Below are positions 2,685 through 13,817 of a stretch of DNA of 13,817 bases, one piece after another. The translations under genes were made by a program, and so were the position numbers. Numbering within the stretch: position 1 is the stretch's first letter; each line of letters begins with the position of its first letter. The stretch is taken from the IMG/VR virus record IMGVR_UViG_2531839482_000006. The stretch is one strand, 5' to 3'. Source of the DNA: a virus (lineage: Duplodnaviria > Heunggongvirae > Uroviricota > Caudoviricetes). The notes below the pieces were generated by a model. It was given only the letters and a program-made list of their open reading frames with translations. It did not search any database and was not told where the DNA came from.

Positions 2685-2710
2685 CGCAAAGTCTCCGCAA
2701 TTACACGCAA

Positions 2711-2961: not shown

Positions 2962-3133
2962 GCTGTTCATTGCTGCTATACACTTTTTTGCTCTCAACGT
3001 AAGCGGTAGCCCATTCTGTTGGGTTGGTGCAGTTGCTTTTAGGAAATGCTATTTACCCCTTAAATGTCGGTTGAAAGAGCTAAAATCCATGCAAAAAATT
3101 TACGCAATTTTGTGTATTATTGTGCAGTAAGTA

Positions 3134-3736
3134 ATGAGCTATTTTCTGCGCAAAAAATGGATGGTAAATTTGTCCGGGTCAGGAAAAATTTTATGGGCGC
3201 TAAACATGAAAAAAGATTCGTATCCTTATTTGATTTGCATGACAGTTTCAGGGCTGATCTTTATTTTCCTTTTCTTCTGGTGGCGGGCAGATATCTACAG
3301 GGTCACGTTTCTTAATCAGAGTATATCCCACTATTACATTCTGTTTAGCATGGGAATAGCTTTTCTGTTATCTCTGTTTTGGGTTAAGAAGGGGATAGTA
3401 AAACAAAGCGGCTGGAAGAGTCTGTCAGCATACCTTAAGGGTTATGCAGGGATGTGCATATTTGCTGGATTTTTTCTGATTATACCCCTTACGACACTAA
3501 CTTATTTTTTGCCTGGAGAGACATCGTCTTATGTTGCACCGTATCGGTATACTTCCGGTAGTTCAAAAAGTTGTTCTGGAGCTGAGGTGGATGACCCCGA
3601 TCTACATGAGAATATTCGCATTTGCTATCCGTATGGCAATTATGAGTACGATAATATTATCTATGTTGAAAAGAAAATTAATATATTAGGTGCGGTAGTG
3701 ACATATGCACAGACCGCGCGTGATGATACTGAATGA
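3134..3736 (+). CDS. Hypothetical multi-pass membrane protein with a ~75-aa Cys/Tyr-containing C-terminal domain; cargo gene in the slot lambda uses for ea8.5/ea22
   Basis: 200-aa ORF on the strand opposite all neighbouring genes; visibly AT-rich; three hydrophobic helix-like segments (LICMTVSGLIFIFLFFWW, YYILFSMGIAFLLSLFWV, MCIFAGFFLIIPLTTLTYFL); followed by its own hairpin terminator. Start is uncertain (in-frame ATGs at 3134, 3161, 3206, 3239; none has a strong Shine-Dalgarno). Confidence 0.55.
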   Translation: MSYFLRKKWMVNLSGSGKILWALNMKKDSYPYLICMTVSGLIFIFLFFWWRADIYRVTFLNQSISHYYILFSMGIAFLLSLFWVKKGIVKQSGWKSLSAYLKGYAGMCIFAGFFLIIPLTTLTYFLPGETSSYVAPYRYTSGSSKSCSGAEVDDPDLHENIRICYPYGNYEYDNIIYVEKKINILGAVVTYAQTARDDTE

Positions 3737-3770
3737 TATAGTATATAGCGGGCAAGTTTTAGTTAATTTA

Positions 3771-3800
3771 TCGAGGTAATATAATTTACCTCGACTCGTT
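3771..3800 (+). terminator. Intrinsic terminator-like hairpin downstream of the plus-strand membrane protein gene
   Basis: 9-bp inverted repeat tcgaggtaa / ttacctcga with a 6-nt loop (3771-3794), followed by a T-containing run ctcgtttgtt. Confidence 0.45.
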
Positions 3801-3946
3801 TGTTCTGGTATTAATATTTCGCTTTACGACCGATTTTTATCTGATGATATCATGCGGTTTTCATATACTGACTTACTGTCTTTTCTCCGTTAGCGATTTT
3901 CTCCTGCTCAGCGATGATTTTATCTTTGGCTTCTAGTTAATTTCGC

Positions 3947-4168
3947 TCACTTCGAACCTCTCTGTTTACTGATAAGCTCCAGATCTTGCTGGCAACTGGC
4001 ACAAGTCCGACAACCCTGAACAGCCAGGCGTCTTCGCTCATCTATCGGATCGCCACACTCACAACAATGAGTTGCGGATACAGTCTGGTAGTTCAGACGA
4101 CGCATTTTTATTGCTGTATTGCGCTGTAATTCTTCGATTTCTGATGCCGAATCAATGATGTCTGCCAT
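3947..4168 (-). CDS. TraR/DksA-family C4 zinc-finger protein (lambda orf73-like)
   Basis: 73-aa ORF with CxxC...17...CxxC (CCECGDPIDERRRLAVQGCRTCASC), typical of the TraR/DksA zinc finger; position between the ea22 slot and the orf61-63-60a block as in lambda. Confidence 0.75.
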   Translation of the reverse strand: MADIIDSASEIEELQRNTAIKMRRLNYQTVSATHCCECGDPIDERRRLAVQGCRTCASCQQDLELISKQRGSK

Positions 4169-4266
4169 CTTCCATTAATCCCTGAATTGTTGGTTAATAC
4201 GCTTGAGGATGAATGCGAACAATAAAAAAGGAGCCTGTAGCTCCCTGATGATTTTTCTTTTCATGT

Positions 4267-4548
4267 TCACCGTTCCTTAAAGACGCCGTTTAACATGCCG
4301 ATCGCCAGGCTTAAATGAGTCGGTGTGAATCCCATCAGCGTTACCGTTTCGCGGTGCTTCTTCAGTACGCTACGGCAAATGTCATCGACGTTTTTATCCG
4401 GAAACTGCTGTCTGGCTTTTTTGATTTCAGAATTAGCCTGACGGGCAATGCTGCGAAGGGCGTTTTCTTGCTGAGGTGTCATTGAACAAGCCCCATGTCG
4501 GCAAGCATAAGCACACAGAATATGAAGCCCGCTGCCAGAAAAATGCAT
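4267..4548 (-). CDS. Small hypothetical protein of the lambda orf61 region; start uncertain
   Basis: 93-aa maximal ORF; internal Met at 4482 would give 71 aa; no strong Shine-Dalgarno at either start; I cannot verify the lambda coordinate mapping. Confidence 0.45.
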   Translation of the reverse strand: MHFSGSGLHILCAYACRHGACSMTPQQENALRSIARQANSEIKKARQQFPDKNVDDICRSVLKKHRETVTLMGFTPTHLSLAIGMLNGVFKER

Positions 4549-4558
4549 TCAGTGGTTG

Positions 4559-4750
4559 TCATACCTGGTCTCTCTCATCTGCTTCTGCTTTCGCCACCAT
4601 CATTTCCAGCTTTTGTGAAAGGGATGCGGCTAACGTATGAAATTCTTCGTCTGTTTCTACTGGTATTGGCACAAACCTGACTCCAATTTGAGCGAGGCTA
4701 TGTGCCATCTCGATACACGTTCTTAACTCAACAGGAGATGCTTTGTGCAT
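4559..4750 (-). CDS. Lambda orf63-like small protein
   Basis: 63-aa ORF at the position and size of lambda orf63, immediately upstream of the orf60a/exo block. Confidence 0.6.
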   Translation of the reverse strand: MHKASPVELRTCIEMAHSLAQIGVRFVPIPVETDEEFHTLAASLSQKLEMMVAKAEADERDQV

Positions 4751-4911
4751 ACAGCCCCCCGTTTATTATTTATCTCCTCAGCCAGCCGCTGTGCTTTCAG
4801 GGGATTTCTGATAACAGAAAGGCCGGGAAATACCCAGCCTCGCTTTGTAACGGAGTAGACGAAAGTGATCGCACCTACCCGGATATTATCGTGAGGATGC
4901 TTCATCGCCAT
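4723..4911 (-). CDS. Lambda orf60a-like small protein
   Basis: 62-aa ORF overlapping the start of exo, as in lambda. Confidence 0.55.
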
Positions 4912-5582
4912 TGCTCCCCAAATACAAAACCAATTTCAGCCAGTGCCTCGTCCATTTTTTCGATGAACTCCGGCACCATCTCGTCAAAACTCGCCATGTA
5001 CTTTTCATCCCGCTCAACCACGACATAATGCAGGCCTTCACGCTTCATACGCGGGTCATAGTTGGCAAAGTACCAGGCATCTTTTCGCGTCACCCACATG
5101 CTGTACTGCACCTGGGCCATGTAAGCCGATTTTATTGCCTCGAAACCACCGAGCCGGAATTTCATGAAATCCCGGGAGGTAAACGGGCATTTCAGTTCAA
5201 GGCCGTTGCCGTCACTGCATAAACCATCGGGAGAGCAGGCGGTGCGCATACTTTCGTCGCGATAGATGATCGGGGATTCAGTAATATTCACGCCGGAAGT
5301 GAATTCAAACAGGGTTCTGGCGTCGTTCTCGTACTGTTTTCCCCAGGCCAGCGCCTTAGCATTAACTTCCGGAGCCACACCGGTGCAAACCTCAGCCAGC
5401 AGGGTGTGGAAGTAGGACATTTTCATGTCAGGCCACTTCTTTCCTGAGCGGGGCTTTGCTATCACGTTGTGAACTTCTGAAGCGGTGATGACGCCGAGCC
5501 GTAATTTGTGCCATGCATCATCCCCCTGTTCGACAGCTCTCACGTCGATCCCGGTACGCTGCAGGATAATGTCCGGTATCAT
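4902..5582 (-). CDS. exo: Lambda exonuclease (Red-alpha), 5'-3' dsDNA exonuclease
   Basis: 226-aa ORF recognised as near-identical to lambda Exo ([50 protein letters not shown]...); overlaps bet. Confidence 0.95.
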
Positions 5583-6364
5583 GCTGCCACCTTCTGCTCA
5601 GTGGCTTTCTGTTTCAGGAATCCAAGAGCTTTCACTGCTTCGGCCTGTGTCAGTTCTGACGATGCGCGAATGTCGCGGCGAAATATCTGGGAACAGAGCG
5701 GCAATAAGTCGTCATCCCATGTTTTATCCAGGGCGATCAGCAGAGTGTTAATCTCCTGCATGGTTTCATCGTTAACCGGAGTGATGTCGCGTTCCGGCTG
5801 ACGTTCTGCAGTGTATGCGGTATTTTCGACAATGCGCTCGGCTTCATCCTTGTCATAGATACCAGCAAATCCGAAGGCGAGACGGGCACACTGAATCATA
5901 GCTTTATGCCGTAACATCCGTTTGGGATGCGACTGCCACGGCCCCGTGATTTCTCTGCCTTCGCGAGTTTTGAATGGTTCGCGGCGGCATTCATCCATCC
6001 ACTCGGTAACGCAGATCGGATGATTACGGTCCTTGCGGTAAATCCGGCATGTACATGATTCATTGTCCTGCTCAAAGTCCATGCCATCAAATTGCTGGTT
6101 TTCATTGATGATACGGGACCAGCCATCAACGCCCACCACCGGAACGATGCCGTTCTGCTTGTCAGGGAAGGCGTAAATTTCTTTCGTCCACGGATTAAGG
6201 CCGTACTGGTTGGCGACGATCAACAATGCGATGAACTGCGCATCGCTGGCATCACCTTTAAATGCCGTCTGGCGAAGAGTGGTGATCAGTTCCTGTGGGT
6301 CGACAGAATCCATGCCGACACGTTCAGCCAGCTTCCCAGCCAGCGTTGCGAGTGCTGTACTCAT
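5579..6364 (-). CDS. bet: Lambda Bet (Red-beta) single-strand annealing protein
   Basis: 261-aa ORF recognised as lambda Beta ([59 protein letters not shown]...). Confidence 0.95.
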
Positions 6365-6369
6365 CCGTT

Positions 6370-6786
6370 TTATACCTCTGAATCAATATCAACCTGGTGG
6401 TGAGCAATGGTTTCAACCATGTACCGGATGTGTTCTGCTATGCGCTCCTGAAACTCAACATCGTCATCAAACGCACGGGTAATGGCTTTTTTGCTGGCCC
6501 CGTGGCGTTGCAAATGATCGATGCATAGCGATTCAAACAGGTGCTGGGGCAGGCCTTTTTCCATGTCGTCTGCCAGTTCTGCCTCTTTCTCTTCACGGGC
6601 GATCTGCTGGTAGTGACGCGTCCAGCTCTGAGCCTCAAGACGATCCTGAATGTAATAAGCGTTCATGGCTGAACTCCTGAAATAGCTGTGAAAATATCGC
6701 CCGCGAAATGCCGGGCTGATTAGGAAAACAGGAAAGGGGGTTAGTGAATGCTTTTGCTTGATCTCAGTTTCAGTATTAATATCCAT
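6370..6786 (-). CDS. gam: Lambda Gam, RecBCD inhibitor
   Basis: 138-aa ORF whose C-terminal 98 aa ([60 protein letters not shown]...) match lambda Gam. Confidence 0.9.
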
Positions 6787-6884
6787 TTTTTATAAGCGTC
6801 GACGGCCTCACGAAACATCTTTTCATCGCCAATAAAAGTGGCGATAGTGAATTTAGTCTGGATAGCCATAAGTGTTTGATCCAT
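6741..6884 (-). CDS. kil: Lambda Kil (host cell-division inhibitor), 47 aa
   Basis: Internal start of the 89-aa track ORF at the ATG at 6884: [47 protein letters not shown]; overlaps gam and cIII as in lambda. Confidence 0.8.
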
Positions 6885-7017
6885 TTTTTGGGACTCCTGG
6901 CTGATTAAGTATGTCGATAAGGCGTTTCCATCCGTCACGTAATTTACGGGTGATTCGTTCAAGTAAAGATTCGGAAGGGCAGCCAGCAACAGGCCACCCT
7001 GCAATGGCATATTGCAT
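6853..7017 (-). CDS. cIII: Lambda CIII (inhibitor of FtsH-mediated CII degradation), 54 aa
   Basis: Hand translation from the ATG at 7017 gives [54 protein letters not shown] with stop at 6853-6855; below the ORF-track size threshold. Confidence 0.9.
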   Translation of the reverse strand: MQYAIAGWPVAGCPSESLLERITRKLRDGWKRLIDILNQPGVPKNGSNTYGYPD

Positions 7018-7089
7018 GGTGTGCTCCTTATTTATACATAACGAAAAACGCCTCGAGTGAAGCGTTATTGGTATGCGGTAACGCCGCGC

Positions 7090-7458
7090 TCAGGCGGCTT
7101 TGATAGTCATATCATCTGAATCAAATATTCCTGATGTATCGATATCGGTAATTCTTATTCCTTCGCTACCATCCATTGGAGGCCATCCTTCCTGACCATT
7201 TCCATCATTCCAGTCGAACTCACACACAACACCATATGCATTTAAGTCGCTTGAAATTGCTATAAGCAGAGCATGTTGCGCCAGCATGATTAATACAGCA
7301 TTTAATACAGAGCCGTGTTTATTGAGTCGGTATTCAGAGTCTGACCAGAAATTATTAATCTGGTGAAGTTTTTCCTCTGTCATTAAGTCATGGTCGATTT
7401 CAATTTCTATTGATGCTTTCCAGTCGTAATCAATGATGTATTTTTTGATGTTTGACAT
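7090..7458 (-). CDS. ea10: Lambda Ea10 (early-left protein, reported ssDNA-binding)
   Basis: 122-aa ORF MSNIKKYIIDYDWKASIEIEIDHDLMTEEKLHQINNFWSDSEYRLNKHGS... recognised as lambda ea10. Confidence 0.85.
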   Translation of the reverse strand: MSNIKKYIIDYDWKASIEIEIDHDLMTEEKLHQINNFWSDSEYRLNKHGSVLNAVLIMLAQHALLIAISSDLNAYGVVCEFDWNDGNGQEGWPPMDGSEGIRITDIDTSGIFDSDDMTIKAA

Positions 7459-7621
7459 CTATTCATATCCTCATAGATAAAAAATCGCCTTCACACTGGA
7501 GGGCAAAGAAGATTTCCAATAATCAGAACAAGTCGGCTCCTGTTTAGTTACGAGCGACATTGCTCCGTGTATTCACTCGTTGGAATGAATACACAGTGCA
7601 GTGTTTATTCTGTTGTTTATG

Positions 7622-7649
7622 CCAAAAATAAAGGCCGACTATGCGGCCT
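7622..7649 (-). terminator. Intrinsic terminator for the inserted membrane-protein gene
   Basis: Minus-strand aggccg-catagt-cggcct (6-bp GC-rich stem) followed directly by uuauuuuugg; lies 5 nt downstream of the CDS stop. Confidence 0.65.
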
Positions 7650-7653
7650 GAAA

Positions 7654-8103
7654 TTACTTAACCAATGATGCTGCATATTCGATAAGGTGAAGCTTTGGGG
7701 CCAGCCAAATTTTTAACCAAGTCATATTGGTTACTACACCAATAATAAAAATCCCCCACAGAGTCAAAACTCCAACCAATGGCATGATAAGAAGATTAAT
7801 ATCACCTTTGCTATCCCAAACCATTGTCGGCCTGTATTTGGGATTTCCTTTCTCCCATGAATATCCTTCATCACCGATTTTACCTGTCTCAACTCTTTGG
7901 CACTGCTTCTTCATAAACCAGAAAACCAGTGGGATTGTTAGAATGGCCATTAATGTTTTAATCAGACTGTCAACCATATTCCATAGCAGCAACTGATGAA
8001 CAACATCAGGAATCTGTGCCTGGCTAAATGAAACAGCCGCGTCTATTCCATTACTGGCTTTTTGCAGTAGTTCTACGAGAATCTTGTTTGCTTGTTCTTC
8101 CAT
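7654..8103 (-). CDS. Hypothetical two-helix membrane protein (149 aa) in an inserted cassette; candidate superinfection-exclusion or abortive-infection effector
   Basis: Complete ORF with a strong RBS (AAGGTGA before the ATG at 8103); soluble N-terminal ~45 aa then two hydrophobic helices (LIKTLMAILTIPLVFWFM, INLLIMPLVGVLTLWGIFIIGVV); own terminator; flanked by a 14-bp direct repeat; no lambda gene corresponds. Confidence 0.7.
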   Translation of the reverse strand: MEEQANKILVELLQKASNGIDAAVSFSQAQIPDVVHQLLLWNMVDSLIKTLMAILTIPLVFWFMKKQCQRVETGKIGDEGYSWEKGNPKYRPTMVWDSKGDINLLIMPLVGVLTLWGIFIIGVVTNMTWLKIWLAPKLHLIEYAASLVK

Positions 8104-8161
8104 ATATCACCTTGATTGTAATAAGCATGAAATTATTTACGGACAAAAATAAAGGCCACCA

Positions 8162-8259
8162 TCAGGCAGCCTTGTAGTTCTGTTTACCAAGTTCTCTGGC
8201 AATCATTGTCGTCGTTCGTATTGTCTACACCATTGATTCTTATCAATAGTCGTAGTCAT
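8162..8259 (-). pseudogene. ral: ral (restriction alleviation) remnant with an internal out-of-frame deletion
   Basis: From the ATG at 8259 the frame reads MTTTIDKNQWC (lambda Ral N-terminus) then RQYERRQ-stop; a second frame reads RTTTMIARELGKQNYKAA-stop (lambda Ral C-terminus); the middle ~37 codons are missing. Confidence 0.7.
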
Positions 8260-8329
8260 ACGGATAGTCCTGGTATTGTTCCATCACATCCTGAGGATGA
8301 TCTTCGAACTCTTCAAATTCTTCTTCCAT
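8243..8329 (-). CDS. Lambda orf28-like acidic peptide (28 aa)
   Basis: Hand translation MEEEFEEFEDHPQDVMEQYQDYPYDYDY with GAGGTGA RBS; overlaps the ral start as in lambda. Confidence 0.55.
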   Translation of the reverse strand: MEEEFEEFEDHPQDVMEQYQDYPYDYDY

Positions 8330-8387
8330 ATCTCACCTCAAATAAGTGGTTTGCTGCCTAATTTCATTTTCTGGCGACCAACACAAG

Positions 8388-8660
8388 TCATCTTGCTGTC
8401 AGTTGTTTGGATTTCCGGTAGCCTGCCGCGTAAAGAGCTACGTTTGGAAGACAAGTTGAGCCTTCATATTTTCTGGTCAGCGTTGTCAGTGTTATTACTT
8501 CTGCTCTCATTGCTGGTTTGCGCTTGCATTGCAAGACCACTCGTGAAGGGGTTGGCCTGTGTAGCTTGTCGGAGCTGATCGCCTTCTGACTTTGCAGATT
8601 TGCGCGACGAGCTCTACGGCGAGAAGCTGCGGTGCCTTTAAATTCTGTTTTTCTGGACAT
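8388..8660 (-). CDS. N: N-type transcription antiterminator, not lambda N; 933W/P22 gp24-like C-terminus
   Basis: 90-aa protein from the Met at 8660 (GGGAGG RBS 6 nt upstream); arginine-rich motif GTAASRRRARRANLQSQK near the N-terminus; C-terminus ...CLPNVALYAAGYRKSKQLTAR resembles the Stx-phage/P22 antiterminator ends as I remember them; cognate nutL upstream. Confidence 0.75.
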   Translation of the reverse strand: MSRKTEFKGTAASRRRARRANLQSQKAISSDKLHRPTPSRVVLQCKRKPAMRAEVITLTTLTRKYEGSTCLPNVALYAAGYRKSKQLTAR

Positions 8661-8758
8661 AGATTCCTCCCGAATAAACTTTGGCGATGCAATCTCGAAG
8701 CTCCTCCTGAGACGGTTGCTTCGGCATTGCATCCCACAGCTCATGTGGTTGGGTGATC

Positions 8759-8806
8759 TGGCTTTTCAGCCACGTAGTCGAGAGTTCGACGTTGTTTAAA
8801 GAGCCT
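8759..8806 (-). promoter_or_regulatory. nutL: boxA-like GGCTCTTTAAACAA and boxB-like hairpin TGGCTGAAAAGCCA (minus-strand sense)
   Basis: boxA-like at 8793-8806 and boxB stem-loop at 8759-8772 in the N leader, in the correct 5'-boxA-boxB-3' order for leftward transcription; same GAAAA loop as the nutR candidate. Confidence 0.55.
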
Positions 8807-8850
8807 GCCAGTCTGTTCCGTTTGGCTTCCAGCGTCCTGCTGACGGTTAA

Positions 8851-8879
8851 ATAGTACGATATGTACTTTATTTGGTCAA
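8851..8879 (-). promoter_or_regulatory. pL-like promoter with overlapping operator dyad (oL)
   Basis: Minus-strand TTGACC (-35), 17-nt spacer, TACTAT (-10); the spacer contains the dyad AGTACGATATGTACT (8853-8867). Confidence 0.5.
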
Positions 8880-9064
8880 TACGATTTGTTCTAAAATGGG
8901 GTGATTTTTTATAACACTTTGTATTTAATAGTGTTGTTTTTTAGCGTGGGTGTATCGCCTCGGCGATGTAAGGAGAGATCAGAATTGCGTGGTTTAGTGA
9001 GTTGTATCTATTTATTTTTCAATAAATACATTTGGTTATGTGTCTTTAGGTGGGGGCGTGAGGC

Positions 9065-9090
9065 AAAGAAAACCCGGCGCTGAGGCCGGG
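9065..9090. terminator. Bidirectional intrinsic terminator at the end of the cI operon (lambda tImm-like)
   Basis: cccggc-gctgag-gccggg hairpin (9073-9090) flanked by aaagaaaa on one side and tttt on the other; lies directly after the last gene of the cI operon. Confidence 0.7.
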
Positions 9091-9092
9091 TT

Positions 9093-9377
9093 TTAGCTAA
9101 TGATTTGGAATCCTATATCCTCAAGCGTTGCGTCACCTCTGCATAACGCATGAAAGTGACGAGCTTTCAGTCCAGCTTGCTTAGCCATGGATTTTATTAA
9201 ATCTCTGGAGAATGGGGCGTGATGCTTATCAACTGTAACCACCCATTTTCCTTTACTGTTCTTGAGAACCCACTGTTCGTGAGAGGTTCCTGTTTTAGGT
9301 TTCATTTCAAACCCCATTTTCTTAAGTCCCCTGATTACCTCGTCGTATTTCAAAGGAGTAAGCTTTTTCAAGAACAT
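9093..9377 (-). CDS. HicA-family (YcfA-like) putative mRNA-interferase toxin with a ~30-aa C-terminal extension
   Basis: 94-aa ORF; HicA-like motifs read by eye: GF...TGTSHEQW...KWVVTVDKHH...LIKSMAKQAGL; start 11 nt after the stop of the upstream partner gene; followed directly by the terminator. Confidence 0.6.
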   Translation of the reverse strand: MFLKKLTPLKYDEVIRGLKKMGFEMKPKTGTSHEQWVLKNSKGKWVVTVDKHHAPFSRDLIKSMAKQAGLKARHFHALCRGDATLEDIGFQIIS

Positions 9378-9388
9378 GTAATGTAACC

Positions 9389-9685
9389 CTAAGCATGAGC
9401 ATCACAAGGCTCAGCAAAGAGTTTTGCTTCACCTCGTTTTCTGACAAAAACCTGAAATGCAATTACCCAATACTTAAGCCACATAGATAAAGGTGCTTTC
9501 CGACTTAGTAGTTGTTTTGCATATTCCGGCTCTGATAGCGCTTCAGTGAAAAAATCTTTAATCTGCTCATCCAGTTTGTTTACAGCTTCTTTCATAGTAT
9601 CTGCTTGCGCTGCCAATGACAGGTCTAAACATGCAGCTACGTAAACGCCGTTCTGCTGGTAGGCCATGCAACGTAAGGTTTTCAT
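9389..9685 (-). CDS. HicB-like (UPF0150-fold) putative antitoxin, no recognisable C-terminal DNA-binding domain
   Basis: 98-aa ORF with GAGGAG RBS 7 nt upstream; N-terminal region GVYVAACLDLSLAAQADTMKEAVNKLDEQIKDF resembles the HicB N-domain pattern; tightly coupled to the HicA-like gene. Confidence 0.5.
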   Translation of the reverse strand: MKTLRCMAYQQNGVYVAACLDLSLAAQADTMKEAVNKLDEQIKDFFTEALSEPEYAKQLLSRKAPLSMWLKYWVIAFQVFVRKRGEAKLFAEPCDAHA

Positions 9686-9857
9686 TTTATCTCTCCTCAG
9701 AAGCTCTCATGTAGGAGCTTAAGTGAAGTTTACCCTATAGGTAATTTTAGACAACCCCAAAATACCTATATTTTGTAAATGTCAATACATTAGCAGCGAA
9801 TACCTTCCAACTTATCCACAAGCCAGAGATTGATAGCTTAAAAAACAAACAGAGAAA

Positions 9858-10511
9858 TTACCCAAACGTCTCTTCTGGCCACTGGCTGGCGATAACTTTC
9901 CCCACAACGGAACAACTCTCATTGCATGGGATCATTGGATATTGCGGGTTTAGTGGCTGTAGAAACACCTGACCGCTATCCCTGATCAGTTTCTTGAAGG
10001 TAAACTCATCACCACCAAGTCTGGCTATGCAGAAATCACCTGGCTCAACAGCCTGCTCAGGGTCAACCAGAATTAACATCCCGTCAGGAAAACTAGGTTT
10101 GGAACCTGTTGGGGCGGTCATCGAGTTACCTTCAACCTCAAGCCAGAATGCAGAGTCACTGGCTTTTTTGGTTGTGCTTACCAATCTCTCCGCATCGCCT
10201 TTGGTAAAGGTTCTGAGTTCTGGAGAGAACATCCCAGCCTGAACATGAGAAAAAACAGGGTACTCATATTGTTTTTTAACTGGGGCCGATGAGTATTCGC
10301 CAACAGGTGAAAATGTCCCGTCGTGGTTGAATGATATGTTATCAATACCAAGGTATTTAAACACCACACCAATATCACTAAGAGATGGATGACGAGATCC
10401 GCGCAACCAGTGTCCAATTCCACCCTGCGTCATACCTAGCTCTTCGGCTAACTTCTCTTGAGTTATGCCGAGCTCTTTCATTCTGGATCTAGCCAGTTCA
10501 TACCATTTCAT
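9858..10511 (-). CDS. cI: CI-type repressor: non-lambda N-terminal HTH domain fused to a lambda-like C-terminal LexA/S24 autocleavage domain
   Basis: C-terminal ~135 aa match lambda CI ([28 protein letters not shown]...GNSMTAPTG...[46 protein letters not shown]) including the Ala-Gly cleavage site; N-terminal ~80 aa ([38 protein letters not shown]...) is unrelated. Start chosen at the Met at 10511 (AAGGA 7 nt upstream); the maximal ORF extends to 10559. Confidence 0.85.
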
Positions 10512-10551
10512 TTTCATGTCCTTATTATTACGCTCTGTATTGCAACCATCC

Positions 10552-10601
10552 ATGCACAATGTGTATTTTTGCTTGCACTAAAAAAGTACATATTGTATTT
10601 T
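10552..10601. promoter_or_regulatory. oR / pR / pRM region: operator-like dyads and a plausible pR
   Basis: Near-palindromes ATGCACAATGTGTAT (10552-10566) and GTACATATTGTA (10586-10597), resembling the oL dyad; pR candidate TTGCAC (10573-10578), 17 nt, TATTTT (10596-10601) upstream of cro. Confidence 0.45.
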
Positions 10602-10628
10602 TTTCTTCATGGTTACTATGGAGGGCAT

Positions 10629-10844
10629 ATGAGCAACCTACGAAAATATCGAGAGTCACTGAATATCTCTCAAACAACACTTGCTAAGGCAGTTGGATGC
10701 ACACAGGGAGCTATCGGACATTGGGAATCTGGTCGTCGCTTCCCAGACCTTAAAACATGCCGTGCTCTTGTTGCGTGTCTAAACAAGTTAGGCGCAAAAG
10801 TAAGTCTTGATGACGTGTTCCCGCCGGAGCACAAAGCCGCTTAA
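10629..10844 (+). CDS. cro: Cro-type repressor (HTH), non-lambda specificity
   Basis: 71-aa protein from the ATG at 10629 (GGAGGG upstream); HTH QTTLAKAVGCTQGAIGHWESG; divergent from cI across the operator region. The upstream in-frame extension in the track has no support. Confidence 0.75.
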   Translation: MSNLRKYRESLNISQTTLAKAVGCTQGAIGHWESGRRFPDLKTCRALVACLNKLGAKVSLDDVFPPEHKAA

Positions 10845-10854
10845 TAAGCGGAGC

Positions 10855-10900
10855 CGCTCTTTGTAACAACGGACATTCGTCCTACGTCGCTGAAAAGCGA
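10855..10900 (+). promoter_or_regulatory. nutR: boxA-like CGCTCTTTGTAACAA and boxB-like hairpin TCGCTGAAAAGCGA
   Basis: boxA-like motif right after the cro stop, and a stem-loop with a GAAAA loop at 10887-10900, mirroring the nutL candidate. Confidence 0.5.
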
Positions 10901-10985
10901 GCCCCAAGATATCTGACCAACTAAGGCCATATGCGTTTCCACGCATACCTTTCAACTAACTATTCACTATTGGAAATCTTAAGAA

Positions 10986-11282
10986 ATGGAACAAACAAAT
11001 TACAGCAAACTATCACAGCGCGACGTTGATCGCGCAGAAACAGATTTACTTATCAACCTGTCAACGCTTACTCAGCGCGGTCTGGCAAAGATGATTGGCT
11101 GTCATGAATCGAAGATAAGCAGAACAGACTGGAGGTTTATAGCTTCGGTCTTGTGTGCTTTTGGCATGGCATCAGACCTCAGTCCGATTAGCAGAGCTTT
11201 TAAGTATGCGCTTGATGAAATCACCAATAAAAAACGCCCGGCGGCAACCGAGCGTTCTGAACAAATCCAGATGGAGTTCTGA
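10986..11282 (+). CDS. cII: CII-type transcriptional activator: hybrid with a non-lambda N-terminal part and lambda-identical C-terminus
   Basis: 98-aa ORF; C-terminal ...TNKKRPAATERSEQIQMEF equals the lambda CII end; HTH LTQRGLAKMIGCHESKISR; the N-terminal ~75 aa differ from lambda. Confidence 0.8.
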   Translation: MEQTNYSKLSQRDVDRAETDLLINLSTLTQRGLAKMIGCHESKISRTDWRFIASVLCAFGMASDLSPISRAFKYALDEITNKKRPAATERSEQIQMEF

Positions 11283-11304
11283 GGTCATTACTGGATCTAT
11301 CAAC
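11226..11304 (-). ncRNA. oop: OOP antisense RNA (lambda oop) with its pO promoter just upstream
   Basis: Minus-strand sequence GTTGATAGATCCAGTAATGACCTCAGAACTCCATCTGGATTTGTTCAGAACGCTCGGTTGCCGCCGGGCGTTTTTTATT, ending in a GC hairpin plus U tract that overlaps the cII 3' end; pO-like TTGAGT, 17 nt, CATAAT on the minus strand at about 11312-11340. Confidence 0.65.
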
Positions 11305-11314
11305 AGGAGTCATT

Positions 11315-12214
11315 ATGACAAACACAGCAAAAATACTCAACTTCGGCAGAGGTAACTTTGCCGGACAGGAGCGTAATGTGGCAGATCTCGATGATGGTTA
11401 CGCCAGACTATCAAATATGCTGCTTGAGGCTTATTCGGGCGCAGATCTGACCAAGCGACAGTTTAAAGTGCTGCTTGCCATTCTGCGTAAAACCTATGGG
11501 TGGAATAAACCAATGGACAGAATCACCGATTCTCAACTTAGCGAGATTACAAAGTTACCCGTCAAACGGTGCAATGAAGCCAAGTTAGAACTCGTCAGAA
11601 TGAATATTATCAAGCAGCAAGGCGGCATGTTTGGACCAAATAAAAACATCTCAGAATGGTGTATCCCTCAAAACGAGGGAAAATCCCCTAAAACGAGGGA
11701 TAAAACATCCCTCAAATTGGGGGATTGCTATCCCTCAAAACAGGGGGACACAAAAGACACTATTACAAAAGAAAAAAGAAAAGATTATTCGTCAGAGAAT
11801 TCTGGCGAATCCTCTGACCAGCCAGAAAACGACCTTTCTGTGGTGAAACCGGATGCTGCAATTCAGAGCGGCAGCAAGTGGGGGACAGCAGAAGACCTGA
11901 CCGCCGCAGAGTGGATGTTTGACATGGTGAAGACTATCGCACCATCAGCCAGAAAACCGAATTTTGCTGGGTGGGCTAACGATATCCGCCTGATGCGTGA
12001 ACGTGACGGACGTAACCATCGCGACATGTGTGTACTGTTCCGCTGGGCATGCCAGGACAACTTCTGGTCCGGTAACGTGCTTAGCCCGGCCAAACTCCGC
12101 GACAAGTGGACCCAGCTCGAAATCAACCGTAACAAGCAACAGGCAGTCGTGACAGCCAGCAAACCAAAACTCGACCTGACAAACACAGACTGGATTTACG
12201 GGGTGGATCTATGA
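11315..12214 (+). CDS. O: Lambda O replication initiator
   Basis: 299-aa ORF recognised as lambda O; contains the ori iterons internally. Confidence 0.95.
   Translation: MTNTAKILNFGRGNFAGQERNVADLDDGYARLSNMLLEAYSGADLTKRQFKVLLAILRKTYGWNKPMDRITDSQLSEITKLPVKRCNEAKLELVRMNIIKQQGGMFGPNKNISEWCIPQNEGKSPKTRDKTSLKLGDCYPSKQGDTKDTITKEKRKDYSSENSGESSDQPENDLSVVKPDAAIQSGSKWGTAEDLTAAEWMFDMVKTIAPSARKPNFAGWANDIRLMRERDGRNHRDMCVLFRWACQDNFWSGNVLSPAKLRDKWTQLEINRNKQQAVVTASKPKLDLTNTDWIYGVDL
11663..11790 (+). repeat. ori-lambda: four ~18-bp iterons followed by an AT-rich unwinding region, inside O
   Basis: atccctcaaaacgaggga, tcccctaaaacgaggga, tccctcaaattggggga, tccctcaaaacaggggga in tandem, then caaaagacactattacaaaagaaaaaagaaaagattatt. 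Confidence 0.85.
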
Positions 12215-12912
12215 AAAACATCGCCGCACAGATGGTTAACTTTGACCGTGAGCAGATGCGTCGGATCGCCAACAACATGCCGGAACAGTACGACGAAAAG
12301 CCGCAGGTACAGCAGGTAGCGCAGATCATCAACGGTGTGTTCAGCCAGTTACTGGCAACTTTCCCGGCGAGTCTGGCTAACCGTGACCAGAACGAACTGA
12401 ACGAAATCCGTCGCCAGTGGGTTCTGGCTTTTCGGGAAAACGGGATCACCACGATGGAACAGGTTAACGCAGGAATGCGCGTAGCCCGTCGGCAGAATCG
12501 ACCATTTCTGCCATCACCCGGGCAGTTTGTTGCATGGTGCCGGGAAGAAGCATCCGTTATCGCCGGACTGCCAAACGTCAGCGAGCTGGTTGATATGGTT
12601 TACGAGTATTGCCGGAAGCGAGGCCTGTATCCGGATGCGGAGTCTTATCCGTGGAAATCAAACGCGCACTACTGGCTGGGTACCAACCTGTATCAGAACA
12701 TGCGGGCCAATGCGCTTACTGATGCGGAATTACGGCGCAAGGCTGCCGATGAACTGACCTGTATGACAGCGCGAATTAACCGTGGTGAGACGATACCTGA
12801 ACCAGTAAAACAACTTCCTGTTATGGGCGGTAGACCTCTAAATCGTGCACAGGCTCTGGCGAAGATCGCAGAAATTAAAGCTAAGTTCGGACTGAAAGGA
12901 GCAAGTGTATGA
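12211..12912 (+). CDS. P: Lambda P replication protein (DnaB helicase loader)
   Basis: 233-aa ORF recognised as lambda P; start overlaps the O stop. Confidence 0.95.
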   Translation: MKNIAAQMVNFDREQMRRIANNMPEQYDEKPQVQQVAQIINGVFSQLLATFPASLANRDQNELNEIRRQWVLAFRENGITTMEQVNAGMRVARRQNRPFLPSPGQFVAWCREEASVIAGLPNVSELVDMVYEYCRKRGLYPDAESYPWKSNAHYWLGTNLYQNMRANALTDAELRRKAADELTCMTARINRGETIPEPVKQLPVMGGRPLNRAQALAKIAEIKAKFGLKGASV

Positions 12913-13199
12913 AGGGCAAAGAGGCAATTATTCATTACCTGGGGACGCATAATAGCTTCTGTGCGCCGGACGTTGCCGCGCTAACAGGCGCAACAGTAAC
13001 CAGCATAAATCAGGCCGCGGCTAAAATGGCACGGGCAGGTCTTCTGGTTATCGAAGGTAAGGTCTGGCGAACGGTGTATTACCGGTTTGCTACCAGGGAA
13101 GAACGGGAAGGAAAGATGAGCACGAACCTGATTTTTAAGGAGTGTCGCCAGAGTGCCGCGATGAAACGGGTATTGGCGGTATATGGAGTTAAAAGATGA
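12909..13199 (+). CDS. ren: Lambda Ren (protection against Rex exclusion)
   Basis: 96-aa ORF MKGKEAIIHYLGTHNSFCAPDVAALTGATVTSINQAAAKMARAGLLVIEGK... recognised as lambda Ren. Confidence 0.85.
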   Translation: MKGKEAIIHYLGTHNSFCAPDVAALTGATVTSINQAAAKMARAGLLVIEGKVWRTVYYRFATREEREGKMSTNLIFKECRQSAAMKRVLAVYGVKR

Positions 13200-13272
13200 C
13201 CATCTACATTACTGAGCTAATAACAGGCCTGCTGGTAATCGCAGGCCTTTTTATTTGGGGGAGAGGGAAGTC

Positions 13273-13817
<545 letters not shown>

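Follow-up and report, generated by a model that had tools for sequence, protein, structure and literature searches.

Positions 8330-11210 of IMG/VR virus record IMGVR_UViG_2531839482_000006 (13,817 nucleotides, analysed in full and called the window below) lie in the early-regulatory segment of a lambda-like prophage, and these coordinates aptly delimit its immunity region. Very probably, the region serves a lambda-like prophage, integrated at the lambda attachment site, as its early-regulatory module, and its immunity is of the VT2-Sakai/Nil2 type. Judged by its genes, the immunity module is of a known and widespread type and is not a new recombinant: the repressor CI is identical over its full length to that of phage 2B8 and of the Morioka Stx1 phage (219/219 residues; 218/219 to VT2-Sakai), Cro is identical to that of all three (71/71), and N matches 2B8 at 90/90 residues and both VT2-Sakai and the Morioka Stx1 phage at 89/90. 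At the DNA level, homology to 2B8 runs without a break over 9857-12900 (98.6%). It was just such a match of cI, cro and N to a single known immunity type, near-identical over full length and with unbroken homology, that the first-pass annotation of this DNA had named as speaking against its own reading. Parts of the region match 2,347 of 5,426 complete Escherichia coli genomes. The finding re-discovers textbook lambdoid mosaicism, in an immunity type sequenced in 1999-2003, and the one small addition to earlier descriptions is the HicB-like/HicA cargo of the rex slot. Its value is didactic, in that one locus displays three kinds of joint: an old one at the domain boundary of cI, a younger crossover at the end of oop and a very recent cargo swap in the rex slot.

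The hybrid CI of this type was described in 2000 by Fattah et al., who also reported that VT2-Sa and lambda are cross-immune, both as summarised in PMC10742460. For lambda CI on the six VT2-Sa operators, the authors of PMC10742460 measured apparent dissociation constants (KD) of 3.7-6.4 uM, compared with 0.21-0.35 uM for lambda OL1 and OR1. The distinct immunity specificity predicted by the first-pass annotation is doubtful in view of the reported VT2-Sa/lambda cross-immunity (as summarised in PMC10742460). The lambda-class C-terminal domain (CTD) might let CI form mixed oligomers with lambda CI, and these might underlie the reported cross-immunity.

The same element is found in CB9615 (E. coli O55:H7) at 98.5% identity over 13.4 kb; there it adjoins ybhC and carries an int-xis segment 97.9% identical to that of lambda, and these two features place it at the lambda attachment site. 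When the window was mapped by local BLAST against lambda 27000-41999, the lambda-like backbone (97.5-98.5% identity) was found to comprise (i) 1333-2961 (att/int/xis); (ii) 3935-7642 (exo to ea10); (iii) 11221-13358 (oop through O, P and ren; 98.55%), with O running from 11315. Two shorter and more diverged lambda-like islands were found at 8973-9092 (lambda 35708-35826; 90.8%) and 9862-10268 (lambda 37231-37637; 93.6%). The remaining stretches to the right of ea10, 7643-8132, 8355-8972, 9093-9861, 10269-11220 and 13359 to the window end, are non-lambda. For segment-wise comparison, lambda, 2B8, CB9615, the Morioka phage, VT2-Sakai and three prophages of lambda immunity (imm-lambda) were used.

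Repressor, operators and antitermination

The cI gene (9858-10517, minus strand; extended to 10553 in databases) encodes 219 residues. Its C-terminal part (9858-10268, minus strand), a linker with the Ala-Gly cleavage site followed by an S24 peptidase/oligomerisation domain, is of the lambda class (Pfam Peptidase_S24, E 1e-28): over 137 codons, 136 residues equal those of lambda, the sole difference being W129L. In lambda cI the catalytic Ser and Lys fall in the C-terminal region; across that region only W129L differs here, and the Ala-Gly site is unchanged. At the DNA level identity to lambda is 93.6% (26 mismatches over 407 bp), with 27 synonymous codon changes and one non-synonymous. The N-terminal helix-turn-helix (HTH) domain (10269-10517, minus strand; HTH_3, E 2e-10) is of the VT2-Sakai/Nil2 type. 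As an 83-residue query it matches Nil2, the Morioka Stx1 phage, the PA phages, ev207 and 2B8 at 100% identity and VT2-Sakai at 98.8%, and no DNA match to lambda was found for it or over 10269-11220 as a whole. The first-pass annotation was thus correct on the architecture, a non-lambda DNA-binding domain joined to a lambda-type autocleavage domain, while its term 'lambda-identical' holds at the protein level only (with W129L) and not for the DNA. Judging from the PRM annotated in NC_004913, the probable cI start is the ATG at 10517, leaderless from PRM.

The cro gene (10629-10844, plus strand; 71 residues) encodes a protein of the HTH_3/XRE fold class (E 4e-12), not of the lambda Cro fold, and no alignment to lambda Cro was obtained.

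Six 17-bp candidate operators with the pattern AAGTACA-N3-TGTAYTT were found at OL and OR, where NC_004913 has three putative operators each, plus early promoters. At OL (8852-8926, minus strand), OL1 (8852-8868) is an exact copy of an operator annotated in NC_004913, whereas OL2 (8877-8893) and OL3 (8910-8926) are off by one and two bases, respectively. At OR (10527-10601, plus strand), OR1 (10584-10600) and OR2 (10552-10568) are exact copies and OR3 (10527-10543) is one base off. The degenerate pattern has six matches versus 0.83 expected, five of them within OL or OR, and the resemblance of the two regions was also seen as an inverted repeat (I1). No lambda-type operator (of the TATCACCGCCAGTGGTA type) was found within three mismatches. 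A promoter scan placed a minus-strand promoter at 8851-8879 (TTGACC, 17 nt, TACTAT). Its position equals that of leftward promoter elements in NC_004913, labelled there 'putative maintenance promoter for CI'; its location upstream of N suggests that it is PL. The putative PR (10573-10601, plus strand) consists of TTGCAC (10573-10578), 17 nt and TATTTT (10596-10601), with the hexamers read by eye, and PRM is divergent from it.

Measured from centre to centre, neighbouring sites are about 24 and 33 bp apart at OL; at OR the distances are about 32 and 25 bp, while the lambda operators are spaced by 20-24 bp. This spacing bears on whether the lambda-class CTD of CI gives the same pairwise cooperativity.

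To the left, the region begins at an orf28 homologue (8246-8329, minus strand), which by tblastn shares 27 of 28 residues with lambda orf28. The gap from there to the N stop codon (8388-8390) is exactly 58 bp (8330-8387). Most of it is occupied by the remnant of a lambda/21-type N gene, of which the 3' end is left (8338-8391, minus strand); this remnant reads MTCVGRQKMKLGSKPLI before its stop, equals the N C-terminus of imm-lambda prophages L006 and L008 at 16 of 17 residues, and overlaps the present N stop in another frame. In DNA, 8327-8390 is 98.4% identical to L008. As read from these matches, the remnant comprises the last 17 codons of such an N and shows directly where the heterologous N block is joined on its left.

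The N antiterminator gene itself (8388-8660, minus strand; 90 residues) is of the short VT2-Sakai type, with a Shine-Dalgarno sequence (GGAGG) upstream and the arginine-rich motif AASRRRARRA. It matches Pfam PF25694 (N_peptide; E 4e-32, 111 bits versus a gathering score of 27.9) and is essentially unrelated to lambda N. Its C-terminal end, CLPNVALYAAGYRKSKQLTAR, aligns with a motif common to N proteins of the 933W class, of P22-like and of HK620-like phages. The 933W type was rejected as its assignment: identity to the 127-residue 933W-class N is about 40% by tblastn, the present N lacks a central segment of about 30 residues of the 933W-class protein, and near-identity is confined to the C-terminal 21-24 residues. 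The first-pass label '933W/P22-type' therefore holds for the non-lambda, P22/933W-class C-terminus and not for the full-length protein. Its other statements on this part of the region, non-lambda operators and the absence of sieB with only 58 bp between orf28 and the N stop, agree with the present results; tblastn with the lambda SieB, RexA and RexB proteins gave only chance-level matches, which lie outside the region.

Candidate nut sites were found at both expected positions, downstream of PL and PR. The putative nutL (8759-8804, minus strand) has boxA GCTCTTTAA (8796-8804), a spacer dyad GTCGA-ACTC-TCGAC and boxB UGGCU-GAAA-AGCCA (8759-8772; hairpin -7.1 kcal/mol, z -4.1). The putative nutR (10855-10900, plus strand) has boxA CGCTCTTTG (10855-10863), a spacer dyad GGAC-ATTC-GTCC and boxB UCGCU-GAAA-AGCGA (10887-10900; -6.5 kcal/mol, z -2.6). 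Each boxB thus forms a 5-bp stem with a GAAA loop, and boxA and boxB together suggest nut function at the two sites. An Rfam search (E <= 0.1) returned only the cIII thermometer described below; because Rfam has no family for oop or nut sites, these assignments rest on lambda identity and folding.

The cII gene (10986-11282, plus strand; 98 residues; Pfam Phage_CII, E 8.5e-34) combines a VT2-Sakai-type body, up to about 11219, with a lambda-allele tail from about 11225. Its product is identical to that of 2B8 at 97/98 residues, to that of VT2-Sakai at 87/98 and to lambda CII at 38/98, with the last 19 residues being those of lambda. A PRE-type CII box, TTGCTGTAATTTGT (TTGC-N6-TTGT), lies at 10995-11008 on the minus strand. 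Separately, the lambda PI-type CII box TTGCGTGTAATTGC is kept at 2697-2710 (minus strand) in the lambda-like int/xis arm. Because this box is retained, a Sakai-type CII would have to recognise lambda-type TTGC repeats.

A HicB-like/HicA cassette in the rex slot

Between N and cI, rexAB is replaced by two genes that the first-pass annotation had missed. The slot (9093-9861) corresponds exactly to lambda 35827-37230 (rexB-rexA), and its flanks are conserved, namely the cI stop codon on one side and a lambda-like terminator on the other. The latter is the intrinsic terminator of the cI operon and lies in the lambda-like segment downstream of the slot (8973-9092, minus strand), which is common to all compared phages at 87-100% identity. 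It consists of a stem at 9069-9094 (hairpin -16.3 kcal/mol) followed by UUUUCUUU, with the U-tract starting within the hicA stop codon.

The first cassette gene (9389-9685, minus strand; 98 residues; phrog_12841, E 1e-52) encodes a putative antitoxin that resembles the HicB N-terminal domain (DUF1902-like). Its AlphaFold2 (AF2) model (pLDDT, the predicted local distance difference test, 78.5) has HicB antitoxins as top folds in the Protein Data Bank (PDB), with 6g1c at a probability of 0.99 and template-modelling (TM) scores of 0.53-0.60. The second gene (9093-9377, minus strand; 94 residues) encodes a HicA-family toxin (Pfam HicA_toxin PF07927, 42.3 bits versus a gathering score of 27, E 8e-11; phrog_353 'toxin', E 2.5e-18). 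The GTSHEQW motif, which holds the conserved His, is kept in homologues and aligns with GGH of 1whz; by sequence, the match to PDB chains is weak (1whz, E 0.17).

The same gene pair recurs in three unrelated contexts, namely prophage tail regions of Klebsiella and of Arsenophonus and a non-phage chromosomal site in Atlantibacter. Its order is kept there, and the genes are 9-22 nt apart or, in two Arsenophonus assemblies, overlapping. Such recurrence is the behaviour of an autonomous toxin-antitoxin (TA) cassette. Several results tell against this identification: the DUF1902 match of the 98-residue protein is below threshold (16.4 versus 22 bits), the E-values of its fold matches are weak (best 0.05), neither a ribbon-helix-helix (RHH) nor an HTH DNA-binding domain was found in it by profile search or in the AF2 model, the antitoxin-like gene comes first in every context examined, which is the reverse of canonical hicA-hicB, and the cassette has no PADLOC or NCBIfam match. 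In addition, it is only by position, and because no terminator intervenes, that its co-transcription with cI in lysogens is judged probable; the spacer between cI and the cassette carries a strong hairpin.

That spacer (9686-9857, minus strand; 172 bp) holds the hairpin as inverted repeat I16 at 9729-9779 (-16 kcal/mol, z -3.8). It may serve as operator, processing site or attenuator, and it is not conserved in the other cassette contexts. When the upstream regions of the cassette from four contexts were aligned for a promoter or operator of its own, only a short TAAACTTC motif recurred.

Among 50,697 phage records, no match to the cassette DNA was found, while 20 of the 5,426 E. coli genomes contain it. 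Its carriers, which have it next to the repressor gene, are prophages in E. coli O55:H7, in the O157:H7 strains 493/89 and LSU61, and in a variety of isolates from animals and the environment. In three of the 20 (L3Cip3, PigCaeca_1 and GPEC79-13-647) the cassette is 99.9-100% identical and stands beside genuine lambda-immunity cI-cro-cII genes (90-99% to lambda); the homology of all three to the window stops at 10268. These comparisons indicate that the N-cI slot is a place of very recent exchange. Among prophages with shared flanks, the slot contents include NYN, DUF1828, BRO, ParA, KilA-N, a BstA C-domain, a Clp-fold protease and rexAB, and on this evidence the rex slot is a hotspot for cargo that is exchanged through recombination in the conserved flanks.

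In the PigCaeca_1 copy (L007 2501-2713), hicA is annotated as a shorter, 70-residue product, and a single base difference from the window may have disabled or shortened the toxin.

An alternative to an addiction-type TA pair is that the cassette is an anti-phage abortive-infection module that replaces RexAB and is triggered by superinfection. It occupies the exact position of rexAB; the same slot elsewhere holds known or suspected exclusion or defence genes, such as rexAB and the gene of a BstA C-terminal-domain protein (BstA being described, in PMC8585504, as a prophage-encoded defence protein); and prophage tail regions likewise carry the cassette as a moron. It is nevertheless without a PADLOC match and is found at a non-phage chromosomal site as well, and a prophage-borne HicAB of P. 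putida was, according to PMC12894663, a functional TA system not implicated in defence. We consider the abortive-infection alternative possible, with the odds against it. Equally tentative is a fuller proposal in which the cassette (9093-9685) would be a lysogen-expressed replacement of RexAB, co-transcribed with cI and acting in abortive infection or exclusion, that has been swapped between imm-lambda and imm-VT2-Sakai prophages via the cI 3' end and the terminator as flanks. If the cassette mediates phage exclusion, it would be one more item for a repressor-adjacent defence hotspot.

Working, integrity and history of the module

As a VT2-Sakai/Nil2-type module, the region would be expected to work as follows. 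In the lysogen, CI would bind the three OR and three OL operators through its 434/P22-style HTH domain, repressing PR and PL and autoregulating PRM. Because the Ala-Gly site is present and only W129L differs in 137 codons, the lambda-class C-terminal part is expected to provide lambda-like, RecA-stimulated autocleavage, together with oligomerisation. Cro, an XRE-type HTH protein unrelated to lambda Cro, would act as in other lambdoid phages, the short VT2-Sakai N would act at nutL and nutR, and CII, with its Sakai-type body, would likewise act as in other lambdoid phages, the TTGC-N6-TTGT box lying at the PRE position. Lambda-type control of CII consists of the oop antisense RNA and a C-terminal degradation signal, and the CII tail and oop would preserve it here. 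The cargo that replaces rexA-rexB between the cI stop and the terminator, a HicB-N-domain-like antitoxin gene followed by that of a HicA RNase toxin, would share the transcript of cI in lysogens, as rexAB does in lambda.

Three points weigh against this account. A simple sigma-70 promoter scan did not flag PR or PRM, which were taken from manual reading and NC_004913; the operators, promoters and nut sites were assigned from sequence and from annotations that another record terms 'putative'; and the prophage may be partly defective, with ral internally deleted and an insertion sequence (IS) after ren, so that the module may maintain only a cryptic element. The last point can be carried further, to the reading that the module has lost its function and is a leftover in a cryptic prophage undergoing decay, with no working switch and with its mosaic structure a by-product of decay. 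In addition to the deletion in ral and the IS21-family element that truncates the region after ren, the related CB9615 prophage has bet and other genes annotated as frameshifted. However, N, cI, cro, cII, O, P and ren are intact open reading frames (ORFs), identical or nearly identical to those of phages that have complete genome records, such as 2B8 and VT2-Sakai, purifying selection on the cI CTD is strong, and the operators, promoters, nut sites, oop and terminator all appear intact. Decay of this extent is therefore improbable.

The joints of the module with lambda-type DNA differ in age. In cI, lambda homology starts exactly at the stop codon and stops at 10268, so that the joint (10268/10269) falls in the inter-domain linker, just upstream of the YEYPVF codons; it was recovered independently as the homology end-point against the three imm-lambda prophages. 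The CTD allele tracks immunity type: among members of the Sakai type it is 97.6-100% identical, and its identity to each lambda-type cI is about 94%. Given this tracking and the 27 synonymous changes versus one non-synonymous, the cI joint is read as old, the hybrid having evolved as a unit under purifying selection. That the CTD travels with the cargo was considered and rejected, as its allele follows the N-terminal domain and not the cargo.

At the other end, the oop unit (11225-11340, minus strand) comprises a promoter (TTGAGT, 17 nt, CATAAT; 11312-11340), a transcript of about 77 nt and a terminator (11231-11258) with its U-tract; promoter and terminator were both detected by scan, and the fold has -28.7 kcal/mol (z -3.6). 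The segment 11221-11322, in which lie the transcript, the terminator and the beginning of the promoter, has 100% identity to lambda versus 79% to VT2-Sakai, and the upstream part of the promoter sits in the lambda-like block that follows. In a three-way alignment, the sequence upstream of 11220-11225 is that of VT2-Sakai and not of lambda, while downstream it is that of lambda and not of VT2-Sakai. On this pattern, the cII joint reflects a real crossover, which lies within the U-tract of the oop terminator. The joint is younger than that in cI and is present in 2B8 as well. It is better described as an oop-unit boundary than as a domain joint in CII, and the last 19 CII residues are of the lambda type because this stretch is the antisense of the lambda oop gene. 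The first-pass annotation had placed joints inside the cI and cII coding sequences, had described a cII with a non-lambda N-terminus, a lambda-identical C-terminus and an overlap with oop, and had held the lambda-type autocleavage domain and oop to be kept; in sequence, all of this is borne out.

In the history thus suggested, the immunity module would have been joined to the lambda replication module (oop-O-P-ren) by the crossover in the oop-terminator U-tract, the joint inside cI would be an old feature of the whole immunity type, and the cargo of the rex slot would pass between heteroimmune prophages when these recombine in the conserved flanks. It is scarcely credible that the module is a newly formed recombinant, with recent lambda crossovers inside cI and cII and a novel immunity specificity: the breakpoints relative to lambda do fall inside both genes, and the cII tail and oop, at 100% to lambda versus 79% to VT2-Sakai, argue for a relatively recent joint there, but CI and Cro are identical in 2B8 and the Morioka Stx1 phage (with N at 90/90 and 89/90), the cI N-terminal domain is identical in many described phages, the cI CTD is 6.4% diverged from lambda DNA almost entirely by synonymous changes and its allele tracks the immunity type, the oop joint is common to 2B8, and the hybrid CI was already described in 2000 (as summarised in PMC10742460).

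Several further features of the prophage segment were observed. Between ea10 and ral, about 490 bp (7643-8132) are inserted relative to lambda, 2B8 and VT2-Sakai. The insertion contains an ORF of 149 residues (7654-8103, minus strand) that matches phrog_3054 (unknown function) and has no match in Pfam, NCBIfam or PADLOC; by eye, its hydrophobic stretches resemble membrane-spanning segments. The ORF is found in few phages, namely Stx2_EH2086/2085, Gally, HF4s (where it is annotated 'TM helix-containing protein') and Oslo. Next to it, ral (8165-8259, minus strand) is a remnant with an internal deletion and a frameshift, in which the N-terminal 16 and the C-terminal 19 residues match lambda Ral in different frames. 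At the right end, 13359-13817 is the end of an IS21-family element (IS100kyp, istB) inserted right after ren, at the start of ninB. As one continuous match, this ren/IS junction was found in none of the 5,426 complete E. coli genomes, the best of which covers 88% of the query in two pieces. In the left arm, 6972-7030 (minus strand) matches the full Rfam model Lambda_thermo, the translational thermoregulator of cIII (88.5 bits), and 2962-3934 is a further non-lambda substitution, in the b2/ea region, whose counterpart in CB9615 carries a hypothetical gene and a gene of the TraR/DksA family.

Comparison with known systems

The closest described phage is 2B8 (NC_049952; Alegriavirus), with N 90/90, cI 219/219, Cro 71/71, cII 97/98 and O 299/299. 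Like the window, it has the oop joint to a lambda-type replication module, a lambda-like left arm and a ral remnant, and it is without sieB. Unlike the window, it carries an NYN-domain gene in the rex slot and lacks the insertion at 7643-8132 with the 149-residue ORF.

The VT2-Sakai, Nil2 and Morioka Stx1 and Stx2 II phages share with the window cI (218-219/219) with the same hybrid architecture, Cro (71/71), N (89/90), the OL/OR operators (three exact, three within one to two bases) and continuous homology from the cI stop to the O start. They differ from it in O, which is HK022-like, in P, which is DnaB-like, in the oop/cII tail, which is divergent (79% in DNA; KKKSPAATEDFKQIDMQF), in the different hypothetical genes of the N-cI slot, and in their backbone, which is of Sepvirinae and not lambda-like.

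Lambda itself is matched in gene order and logic, in the C-terminal part of cI (136/137), in the terminator after the slot (91%), in oop-O-P-ren (98.5-100%), in the three 17-bp sites per operator region and in the CII box at the PRE position. In contrast, N, the nut sites, PL/OL, the DNA-binding domain of cI, OR/PR/PRM, Cro (in fold class) and the body of CII are heterologous, and where lambda has rexAB and sieB, the window has rexAB replaced and is without sieB.

With the HicAB type II TA systems, the cassette shares a HicA-family domain with the conserved His and occurrence in varied mobile contexts, and the fold of its small partner may be that of the HicB N-domain. It departs from them in that the antitoxin-like gene comes first and is without an RHH or HTH domain, in that HicA has an extension of about 25 residues, and in its location inside the cI operon.

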